From an uncultured archaeon (lineage in GTDB: Archaea > Asgardarchaeota > Jordiarchaeia > Jordiarchaeales > Jordiarchaeaceae), in the NCBI GenBank assembly GCA_964510585.1, contig CAZECW010000037.1:1-14230 (forward strand): a stretch of 14,230 nt of DNA. The letters run 5' to 3'. Made by a program: the position numbers and the translations under genes. The notes beneath the pieces were generated by a model, which saw only the letters and a list, made by a program, of their open reading frames with translations, ran no database searches and was not told the DNA's origin. Below, piece by piece: positions 10,975-13,909 of this stretch; the first letter of the stretch is position 1, and every line of letters begins with the position of its first letter.

Positions 10975-11172
10975 AAGCGTAATACCAACTTCAACACTAG
11001 ATATAAATTTTTACAAAAAATGCTCCGTCAAACAATCTTCACTTTTGGAAAATATAAGTTGAATTCTGAAAATTTTTCAAATTAACTTTGTAAAGTTGCA
11101 AAAAATTAACCAAAACCCATAAAAAACTACACCCGCTTACGCGTTTTAGACAAGATATGAAAGAAGTTTTAC

Positions 11173-11448
11173 AAAACCTTGGTGAGAAAGCCCCCGACTT
11201 TAGTCGTGGGGATGAATCGCCAGAAAGTTTATTTGAAAGTAGGGTATGTAAATAGTTGTTGGTAGCTGAAGGGTTTGGCTTGGGCTTAAGAGGCTAAACA
11301 AGACGCAGCCCCCATGAGGGTGCCAACATAGACGCCGTTCCCTTGAGGGAAGGGCGTGTTAACTGGGTGATGGCACACCCATTGCTTCGAAGGCTCCCGA
11401 TGAGCCAGAAGCAAGAATCCCCGCGACTTTAGTCGCGGAGAGTGTCAA
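11173..11448 (+). mobile_element. Complete 276-bp non-autonomous IS200/IS605-family (IS608-like) mini element, copy 2
   Basis: TTAC at 11169-11172 immediately 5'; AAAG (11187-11190) at the foot of hairpin CCCC-CGACT-TT-AGTCG-T-GGGG (11191-11211); GAAT (11415-11418), hairpin CCGCGACT-TT-AGTCGCGG (11421-11438), terminal TCAA (11445-11448); no target duplication and no transposase ORF. Confidence 0.9.
11221..11235 (+). promoter_or_regulatory. Element-internal BRE/TATA-like promoter candidate
   Basis: CAGAAAG followed by TTTATTT (11228-11234), about 27 nt upstream of the start of the first predicted RNA stem (11255-11257). An alternative TATA is TATGTAAA (11245-11252), which reads TATATAAA in copy 1. 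Confidence 0.45.
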
Positions 11449-11468
11449 CATTCATAATGGCAGTTTAA
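11255..11468 (+). ncRNA. Candidate TnpB-type omegaRNA (scaffold ~11255-11448 plus ~20-nt flank-derived guide)
   Basis: Contiguous stems read by eye: 11257-64/11321-28, 11265-68/11306-09, 11273-79/11293-99, 11332-42/11347-57, 11364-69/11376-81, 11382-88/11408-14 enclosing 11392-96/11402-06, then the right-end hairpin. Ends at the IS right end, as TnpB omegaRNAs do. Confidence 0.6.
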
Positions 11469-12466: not shown

Positions 12467-12991
12467 TTGCATGTGGAGGAAGCCCCCTTCGCAAGAGTTT
12501 TCGCATATAGGGTGATTTTCATCTTTTTCCTCAGTTTTATAGTGTTCGGAATTCTCGCATATGGACTGGGCCAGTTCTCAATTCAGCAATTATTCAGCAC
12601 ATCGATGAGCGCTGTCCAATTATTAGCCCTAGCATATCTGGGAGTAGCGTCTTTCCTAATCTATTTGGGAATTGTTTACTACAAGTTTAGATATGTGGTT
12701 AGGAGAGACAGATTACAGATTAAATTCTTCCCCTTCACAATTTCTATCCGCTACGACACAGTGTACGAAATTGATTTAGTCCCACATGAAAACTTGGAGC
12801 ATTCTCCCAAGTTTGGACTTATGATTCTGGGAAATTCCCTTATTGCCGTTGCAGGCAAAAAACCCGTTCTGTACATAAAAAGAATGGAGGGCATAATCAC
12901 AGACTTTTATATTTCCTCAGAATACCCGGAACAGTTGATTTCCAGAATTAAATTCAACATGAAGAAGTACTTCGCCCCCAGAAAAACTTGA
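12467..12991 (+). CDS. Hypothetical membrane protein (two N-terminal hydrophobic helices plus a soluble, possibly PH-like, C-terminal domain)
   Basis: Hydrophobic stretches VIFIFFLSFIVFGILAYGL and LLALAYLGVASFLIYLGIVY followed by a beta-rich region; divergent from the hydrolase. Confidence 0.65.
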   Translation: MHVEEAPFARVFAYRVIFIFFLSFIVFGILAYGLGQFSIQQLFSTSMSAVQLLALAYLGVASFLIYLGIVYYKFRYVVRRDRLQIKFFPFTISIRYDTVYEIDLVPHENLEHSPKFGLMILGNSLIAVAGKKPVLYIKRMEGIITDFYISSEYPEQLISRIKFNMKKYFAPRKT

Positions 12992-13027: not shown

Positions 13028-13909
13028 TCAGGGTTTTGCGAAGCCTCTTTTGAGCTCCAATCTTTGTAGAATGTTTTTCGCCGTTTCTTTTACGTCCTCG
13101 TCGGGATCCTCAGTGAAACCAGATAATTTCTGAATCAGATAATTTGTTTTTACTCCCCGATGGGCATAGGCTCCAAGTGCGAAAACAGCGTTGGCGCGCA
13201 CATGAGGATCAGGGTCATTTAGTAAGTTGAGTAGCGGCTTTAAGATTCTCTCGTCAACCTGTTTTTCTTCGGCGTTTTCCCCAATTACGAATGCAATTCC
13301 TTCACGAATTTGGGGATCCTTGTGACTTAAAAGTTCAATGAATCTTTCCAAGACTTGTTCCTTCATCTGCGCCCCGTCCCAGATGTTTTCCGCCAAGGCA
13401 ATAGAGAGTCCGACCTTAACATTGGAGTCCCGCGTTTCCAATATTTTTTCCATAAGTTCTGAATCGTTTTTTTCCAAAATTTCTTTTACAGCATAGATTC
13501 CAAGGGTCCAGCCCGCGTTGGCTCGGAGTTCCTTATCATCATCGGTGAGAAATCTGAGAAGCGTTTTTATGATTCCCCTACTATAAAAACCCAGCTTAGC
13601 ATACTCACCCAGAGCAGTGGTGGCGCGACAGCGCACCTTACTACTCCAATCCCTTAATAGTTTTATTAGTGGTTTCAGAGCAGACTCATCAAAAATTCCG
13701 CGAGAGGCATACTCCCCCACAGCAAAAGCCGAGTTCATCCGAACCTCCCTATCCTCATCCTGCAACATGGGTATAAGTAACTTTAAAGCCCTTCTATCAA
13801 GTTGACCTTGCAACGCGTATCTCCCAATGTTAAAAGCCGCACGGCTCCGCAACAATCTGTCCGAATCTGCCAATAGCCGAATCTGCTTTTCCAAGTCTTG
13901 CCCCTTCAA
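13028..13909 (-). CDS. HEAT-repeat (alpha-solenoid) protein
   Basis: About 7 repeats of the form L..LL.D.D..VR..AA.ALG.(Y)A; TTG start with GAGGGT 8 nt upstream. Confidence 0.9.
   Translation of the reverse strand: MKGQDLEKQIRLLADSDRLLRSRAAFNIGRYALQGQLDRRALKLLIPMLQDEDREVRMNSAFAVGEYASRGIFDESALKPLIKLLRDWSSKVRCRATTALGEYAKLGFYSRGIIKTLLRFLTDDDKELRANAGWTLGIYAVKEILEKNDSELMEKILETRDSNVKVGLSIALAENIWDGAQMKEQVLERFIELLSHKDPQIREGIAFVIGENAEEKQVDERILKPLLNLLNDPDPHVRANAVFALGAYAHRGVKTNYLIQKLSGFTEDPDEDVKETAKNILQRLELKRGFAKP

Follow-up and report, generated by a model that had tools for sequence, protein, structure and literature searches.

The window, the whole 14,230-nt stretch of DNA that was analysed, is contig C37 of a Jordarchaeia metagenome-assembled genome (MAG) from a hot spring (3.78 Mb, 217 contigs). 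It contains a 276-bp unit that begins with AAAACC and ends with GTCAA and is flanked by genes for a carbon-nitrogen hydrolase and an alpha/beta-hydrolase on the opposite strand. The earlier note on this DNA had assigned IS200/IS605 ends to the unit and, in agreement with this, the tetranucleotides TTAC, AAAG, GAAT and TCAA as well as both hairpins can be read directly: TTAC precedes the unit, AAAG abuts the imperfect left hairpin on its 5' side and GAAT the right hairpin, which is followed by AGTG and the terminal TCAA (Table 1). As also described there, a gap of ~45 nt (11212-11256) separates the left hairpin from the first paired segment, and pairing runs from 11257 to the terminal TCAA. The gap contains the BRE/TATA-like motif CAGAAAG-TTTATTTG. 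No open reading frame of at least 50 aa overlaps 11173-11448 on either strand, which bears out the absence of a tnpA or tnpB reading frame from the unit. With subterminal imperfect hairpins at both ends, and without terminal inverted repeats or a target duplication, the element has the properties that define a PATE. Elsewhere in the window, a 174-aa reading frame without a Pfam match (12467-12991, plus strand) lies beside a gene for a HEAT/Armadillo-repeat protein (13028-13909, minus strand).

Table 1. Features of the window and related protein-free elements in the same and other genomes. Positions without a contig name refer to the window.
Feature	Position	Strand	Remark
TTAC, TnpA target/left cleavage site and predicted TnpB TAM	11169..11172	+	precedes 83 of 84 left junctions
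Complete protein-free IS200/IS605 derivative (PATE, family MITE-1)	11173..11448	+	boundaries common to 29 full copies
AAAG and imperfect left hairpin (TnpA recognition)	11187..11211	+	AAAG 11187-11190, hairpin CCCCCGAC-TTTA-GTCGTGGGG 11191-11211; ~89% identity to the left end before tnpA
BRE/TATA-like motif CAGAAAG-TTTATTTG, predicted transcription start ~11257	11221..11235	+	by homology; putative function
Hypervariable spacer, TATA-like motif to first stem	11236..11254	+	shared variants 66 per 1000 cells
Stem domain S1, closing stem GUUGGUAGC/GUGCCAAC and inner hairpin	11255..11329	+	from folds
Stem S2, nine pairs	11331..11357	+	six keep pairing through two-sided changes
Invariant core AACTGGGTGATGGCACACCC with stem S3	11361..11380	+	81 genome matches
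Stem S4 (UUGCUUC.../...GAAGCAA)	11382..11414	+	parent's tnpB stop codon lies here; closing stem 96% paired
GAAT, right hairpin, AGTG, terminal cleavage site TCAA	11415..11448	+	GAAT 11415-11418, hairpin CCCCGCGAC-TTTA-GTCGCGGAG 11419-11440, TCAA 11445-11448; aligns to the right end downstream of tnpB
Predicted guide CATTCATAATGGCAGT... of the window copy	11449..11468	+	predicted from position only
Right 206 bp of a second copy, ended by contig start	1..206	+	96% identity with positions 71-276 of the element
Right 138 bp of a third copy, ended by contig end	14093..14230	-	98% identical
MITE-2 loci L060-L063	C58:28227-28557, C107:6908-7233, C32:13044-13376 (minus), C21:~141-398 (5'-truncated)
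Ca. Methanomethylicota WYZ-LMO10 elements			L089, L095, L100, L106
Nitrososphaeria KM4338-22 elements			L091, L093, L101
Methanomethylicaceae KM4337-33 elements			L094, L102

A BLASTN copy count within the same genome, as the earlier note had proposed, yielded numerous copies, their boundaries after TTAC being identical: 29 are full-length, and a further 91 hits are fragments of at least 100 nt, with 91-98% identity. The first and the last base are identical in all 29 full copies, and the preceding TTAC is the only flank they have in common. Genome-wide, a single one of the 84 left-end junctions, at least six of which stem from autonomous copies, follows TCAC in place of TTAC. On the other side, 68 right-end junctions with different flanks were found, and the 20-nt interior core occurs 81 times in the genome. 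Hence, the occurrence of the element is not due to chance, given its many copies, fixed boundaries and flanks that are unrelated apart from TTAC. About 65-80 protein-free copies occupy different loci in this one genome, ~15 for each autonomous copy, and the element makes up ~0.6% of the genome. No frame of at least 150 aa is interrupted by 26 of the 29 full copies; the remaining three are inserted at most ~22 codons from an end of the frame.

The two halves of the element have separate counterparts in tnpA- and tnpB-bearing insertion sequences. Its left ~90 bp, including the TATA-like motif, align to the left end and the tnpA leader, and its right ~155 bp (from ~11293) align to the tnpB 3' end and the right end of relatives on C8, C54, C152, C45 and C81. 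The portion of S1 that begins at ~11293 corresponds to the tnpB coding region in the vicinity of the RuvC-III motif, and in a tblastn search with the TnpB of a sister species many copies of the element were matched at TnpB residues 309-348. As judged from these alignments of its left and right halves, the 276-bp element is an internal-deletion derivative, in which the tnpA promoter region has been joined to the final ~155-190 bp of the parent, the part of the insertion sequence that encodes the guide RNA, with no other sequence retained. It is established that TnpB guide RNAs (omegaRNAs) are encoded at the tnpB 3' end and right end (restated in PMC10691335). An interior aligning to some other region would have spoken against the reading in the earlier note; only the tnpB 3' end and right end were matched. 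This homology, together with the compensatory stem changes described below, upholds the proposal that a TnpB-type guide-RNA scaffold was kept.

Y1 transposase genes are located on C169, C7 and C162; the left end found upstream of each has ~89% identity to that of the element. The TnpA encoded on C169 is 129 aa long, and its HUH motif (PDHLHLF) and catalytic tyrosine are intact. A Y1 transposase with matching ends is therefore present in the genome and could be supplied in trans, its activity being predicted from the gene. Directly downstream of the C169 tnpA follows tnpB, the N-terminal 174 aa of which are encoded on this contig. The C-terminal 107 aa, with the zinc ribbon and the RuvC-III aspartate, are found on C8, where the right end after the tnpB stop is ~78% identical to that of the element. 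The middle of this closest tnpB (~85 aa, residues ~142-224) is absent from the assembly and could not be bridged by joining contig ends. An autonomous parent with the same ends had been anticipated, and these copies, with the left end followed by tnpA and tnpB and with the right end after tnpB, correspond to it; tnpB genes with a homologous 3' region, the lack of which would have weakened the original proposal, are present in the genome.

One complete, diverged tnpB copy is found on C81, within a stop-free frame of 571 aa (C81:5072-6787, minus strand; L034:1315-3030) that contains Y1_Tnp, OrfB_IS605 and TnpB zinc-ribbon domains. In its TnpA part, the alignment with solved TnpAs begins only near their residue 36, and the HUH motif has the sequence YIQ; the frame gives the impression of an in-frame fusion between a degenerate tnpA and a complete tnpB. 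In both TnpB types, that of C81 (IVLGRL) and that of the sister species G004 (IVVGNL; L080, G004:C141), a glycine occupies the position of the catalytic glutamate of RuvC-II; an unrelated TnpB on C204 has the usual LEDL there. In their glycine-type site, the two types agree with the clades of rearranged RuvC-II described by Altae-Tran et al. 2023. The substitution marks large TnpB clades, for which alternative glutamate use and activity have been predicted (PMC10691335).

At least four protein-free families combine the left end, the TATA-like motif and a scaffold of at least 125 nt, namely MITE-1, MITE-2, a ~205-bp family in G004 and a variant in genome G003. MITE-2 (~330 bp) resides in the same genome as the window and has the same order of parts, the same TTAC/AAAG/GAAT/TCAA code and a TATA-like motif after the left end; its S4 is longer and resembles the S4 of the diverged IS copy on C81. 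The ~205-210-bp family in G004 lacks S1: the tnpA leader is joined directly to S2, and the part from S2 to the right end is kept. Short derivatives are represented by L074, L078, L082 and L076 in G004 and by L072 in G003, where yet another deletion junction is observed. L076 carries a ~200-bp insertion inside the left hairpin.

Within the genus, related elements occur in the genomes of Candidatus Jordarchaeia archaeon QZM_A3 and RPF2. The exact core pattern was found 6 times and once in two genomes of the same genus and in none of 397 other genomes of the phylum; as only exact matches were counted, the 3 positive genomes out of 400 leave out diverged relatives. The core is also present in MAGs of other archaeal phyla. 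Methanomethylicota and Nitrososphaeria MAGs contain elements of the MITE-2 layout, which are 327-346 bp long, preceded by TTAC and in many cases located at a contig end. Two of them, L093 and L094, have the same sequence even in their flanks; as their MAGs are placed in different phyla, an overlap in binning or a contig common to both is suggested. The protein-free elements of the three phyla have a common junction (an AT-rich spacer, then GATGTGGYCYGGATGTCC), and their S1 and S4 differ by compensatory changes.

The whole 300-nt stretch holding the element has a predicted folding energy of -115.6 kcal/mol, compared with -88.1 +/- 5.2 kcal/mol for shuffled sequences (z = -5.3). For the interior with the right end (11250-11448, 199 nt) the values are -84.2 and -63.2 +/- 4.4 kcal/mol (z = -4.8), and the fold consists of five stem domains, S1-S4 and the right hairpin. 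When MITE-1, MITE-2 and tnpB-linked copies are compared, six of the nine pairs of S2 are kept through double changes, for example ACGCC/GGCGU versus GUGCC/GGCAC. RNAalifold predicted 47 pairs for ten protein-free elements from three phyla. In our own count on this alignment, which used the structure derived from the same alignment and mutually related sequences, 93% of the cells were paired and 18 of the 47 pairs showed a compensatory change; in controls with the partners slid by 1-3 columns, 35-44% of the cells were paired and 1-7 pairs were compensatory. Some of this covariation may have arisen before tnpB was lost and been inherited from tnpB-linked ancestors. Compensatory changes are seen in S1, S2 and S4 (in 7 pairs of S4 across the protein-free elements) and, across phyla, in the left hairpin, while S3 is invariant and hence uninformative in this respect.

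The variation among the ~120 copies and fragments of the window family was divided into variants shared by at least two copies, read as change in proliferating lineages, and singletons, read as decay after insertion. For shared variants, the rate per 1000 cells is 9.9 in the stems and 17.3 in the loops of the RNA part, and 66 in the spacer; for singletons it is 2.3 in stems and 1.6 in loops, roughly the same in both. At gathering thresholds, Rfam returned nothing in the window, and MITE-1 was without a match. One MITE-2 copy gave a weak full-length match to RF02656 (sot0042) of 23 bits against a cut-off of 88 (E-values up to 1), which was not repeated on seven further loci. RF02656 is a haloarchaeal sotRNA that is now regarded as an omegaRNA (PMC12558985). 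A pseudoknot between GTGCCA and TGGCAC was also considered and dropped on inspection of the alignment, since neither the tnpB-linked copies nor MITE-2 have this complementarity.

In autonomous copies, the counterpart of the element's TATA-like motif is AAAAAG(C/T)TTATAGG, ~40 nt before the tnpA start codon ATG; the T-T-A core of the motif is kept across all aligned protein-free families. This left-end-proximal motif is a plausible candidate promoter. Another TATA candidate lies in the hypervariable spacer, reading TATATAAA in most copies and TATGTAAA in the window copy; if used, it would place the 5' end of the RNA inside S1. The left-end-proximal motif is favoured because of its conservation across families. 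To derive a promoter consensus, tRNA genes were predicted with ARAGORN, but no more than 6 were found in the 3.78-Mb genome, whether or not introns were allowed for. Among the RNA runs, only X11 contained part of the element, as one contig of 217 nt at a depth of 3.4. It spans 11296-11448 of a related copy plus 12 nt of right flank, with neither start nor strand visible; its 5' 53 nt match another gene (C35:1743-1772), and carry-over of DNA is possible. No transcript starting inside the element was found in these RNA data, in which the X11 contig is the only one with element sequence.

An omegaRNA derives its guide from the sequence immediately beyond the right end of the transposon (PMC10691335). 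Of the 68 guides read in this way, two have a match elsewhere that is preceded by TTAC (at most 2 mismatches), one of them exact, which argues against a systematic targeting of other sites. The exact match belongs to a copy on C12 (C12:8680-8955), whose guide agrees with TTAC + 16 nt at an unoccupied site at C154:2120. The right flanks of the two loci are ~96% identical over ~150 nt, starting with ATG, and the left flanks differ. The site on C154 may be either a paralogue or a strain variant, and is a predicted TnpB target. In three DNA runs holding the locus, all of them hot-spring metagenomes, no contig joining 11172 to 11449 as in an empty allele was detected, a result that is uninformative either way.

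The reading that we favour, with a probability of roughly 0.6, is that the element is moved by TnpA in trans, transcribes a scaffold and guide RNA from its own promoter, and is retained by TnpB that acts in trans to cut the empty site. TnpA from the few autonomous copies would excise the top strand at TTAC and TCAA and paste it 3' of another TTAC. The left-end-proximal promoter would then give rise to a ~190-nt transcript from near 11257 that crosses TCAA into the flank and would constitute an omegaRNA with the guide CATTCATAATGGCAGT... in the case of the window copy. TnpB made elsewhere in the genome would load this RNA and cut the empty site (TTAC + guide), and recombination with a filled sister copy would restore the element, which would in this manner exploit both enzymes of its parent. 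Built on the observed anatomy, copies, TTAC specificity, homology, intact TnpA gene and stem conservation, this scheme predicts promoter activity, the transcript, TnpB loading and homing.

The element could instead be a passive deletion derivative, which TnpA moves in trans and in which the omegaRNA-like part is an inherited remnant with no guide function. The copies are young, as their 91-98% identity indicates, and have thus had little time to decay; the families could owe their covariation to tnpB-linked ancestors, and both the missing transcript and the missing Rfam match of MITE-1 fit a remnant. Yet the right-end hairpin and cleavage site take up just 34 nt (11415-11448), and at least four families have kept a scaffold of at least 125 nt. 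In addition, shared variants avoid the stems, the adjacent spacer being about six times more variable, and elements of the three phyla that have the same junction differ by compensatory changes in S1 and S4. On balance we regard a passive remnant as rather unlikely. That the stems act at the level of DNA, by stabilising the circle, by helping TnpA synapsis or as protein-binding DNA, appears improbable. IS200/IS605 elements do move as top-strand single-stranded DNA, of the same sense as the proposed RNA (PMC5934647), and both strands of the element fold about equally well. Several of the conserved plus-strand pairs, however, are G-U wobbles, which would be weak as G-T in DNA, and the region is homologous to the omegaRNA-encoding part of tnpB elements. 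Moreover, IS608 TnpA is not known to require any interior structure.

Least probable of all, to the point of being a marginal option, is a use at the level of the host, in which ~70-80 guide-RNA genes would program a TnpB with rearranged RuvC-II for regulation or defence. The glycine at the RuvC-II glutamate position in both TnpB types would suit such a role, most insertions are intergenic, and according to PMC10691335 no role of standalone omegaRNAs is known. The guides, however, are whatever happens to flank each insertion, with matches elsewhere for just the two mentioned above, and the TnpBs are found in ordinary IS contexts together with tnpA. Returning to an element that uses both parental enzymes, a broader hypothesis can be put forward tentatively, at somewhat less than even odds: the protein-free elements may constitute a separate lineage, namely a guide-RNA gene with its own promoter, set between IS608-type ends. 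This lineage would have passed among hot-spring archaea of three phyla, with its RNA structure maintained by selection, and would act as a hyperparasite of IS605 elements by exploiting TnpB homing and TnpA transposition, having reached ~70-80 copies in one Jordarchaeia genome. If true, this would be the first comparative evidence for selection on the omegaRNA of a PATE itself.

Whether the kind of element had been described before, a question left open in the earlier note, can be answered in the affirmative for its general type. Standalone omegaRNAs are evidently mobilised, lack an effector and a transposase and act in trans with compatible effectors (Altae-Tran et al. 2021 via PMC10691335); their biological role is described as unknown. 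They share with the present element the mobilised omegaRNA locus free of effector and transposase genes, effector-bearing loci in the same genome and a guide from outside the transposon end. In contrast, the present element is archaeal (Asgard) and of TnpB type, and has ~65-80 copies, its RNA gene is located behind a motif inherited from the tnpA promoter region, and its function in trans is predicted. According to Meers et al. 2023 (PMC10055086), omegaRNAs are also often encoded by PATEs, in which case they would depend on a TnpB that is supplied by other IS elements and acts in trans. In Geobacillus stearothermophilus (PMC10055086) and among the IStrons of C. difficile (10.1101/2023.11.20.567912), PATE-like elements have been described that resemble the present element in their ends with subterminal hairpins, the absence of a protein gene and the presumed mobilisation by TnpA in trans. 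Compared with these, the element resides in another host domain, has many more copies per autonomous copy, and its layout recurs in several families and three archaeal phyla.

The haloarchaeal IS1341-type sotRNAs/omegaRNAs (RF02656, RF02657; PMC12558985) are likewise archaeal RNAs that overlap the tnpB 3' end in sense and end at the right end, but they are described inside tnpB genes, whereas the present elements are protein-free. In the literature searched, no description of the MITE-1 family, of such elements in Asgard archaea or of a fusion of tnpA leader and omegaRNA was found. Hence, the kind of element is already published, and what is notable here is the copy number, the recurrent layout and the spread across phyla.

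IS608 of Helicobacter pylori is bacterial, autonomous (tnpA and tnpB) and about 1.8 kb long, whereas the present element is archaeal and protein-free. The two have the identical four tetranucleotides and the same geometry of hairpins and cleavage sites; in IS608, TTAC, AAAG, GAAT and TCAA are the left cleavage, left guide, right guide and right cleavage sequences, respectively (PMC5934647). Beyond this tetranucleotide code, no nucleotide similarity between the element and IS608 was detectable, as far as tested.

For the role of standalone omegaRNAs, the elements provide a comparative data set of tens of young copies and at least four families with different deletion junctions. With young copies, several families distinct in their junctions and relatives in three phyla, selection on the RNA part can be measured without the constraint of a protein-coding sequence. 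The element also offers a concrete RNA, TAM (TTAC) and guide for an archaeal TnpB with a glycine-type RuvC-II site. Finally, the abundance of the element has marked the assembly itself. In X1, the hot-spring metagenome run that represents the locus best, unitigs of the element have a depth of 562 and their flanks one of 10.3, a difference of ~55 times, and 88 of 434 contig ends lie inside a copy, so that roughly one in five breaks between contigs of this Asgard assembly is due to the element.
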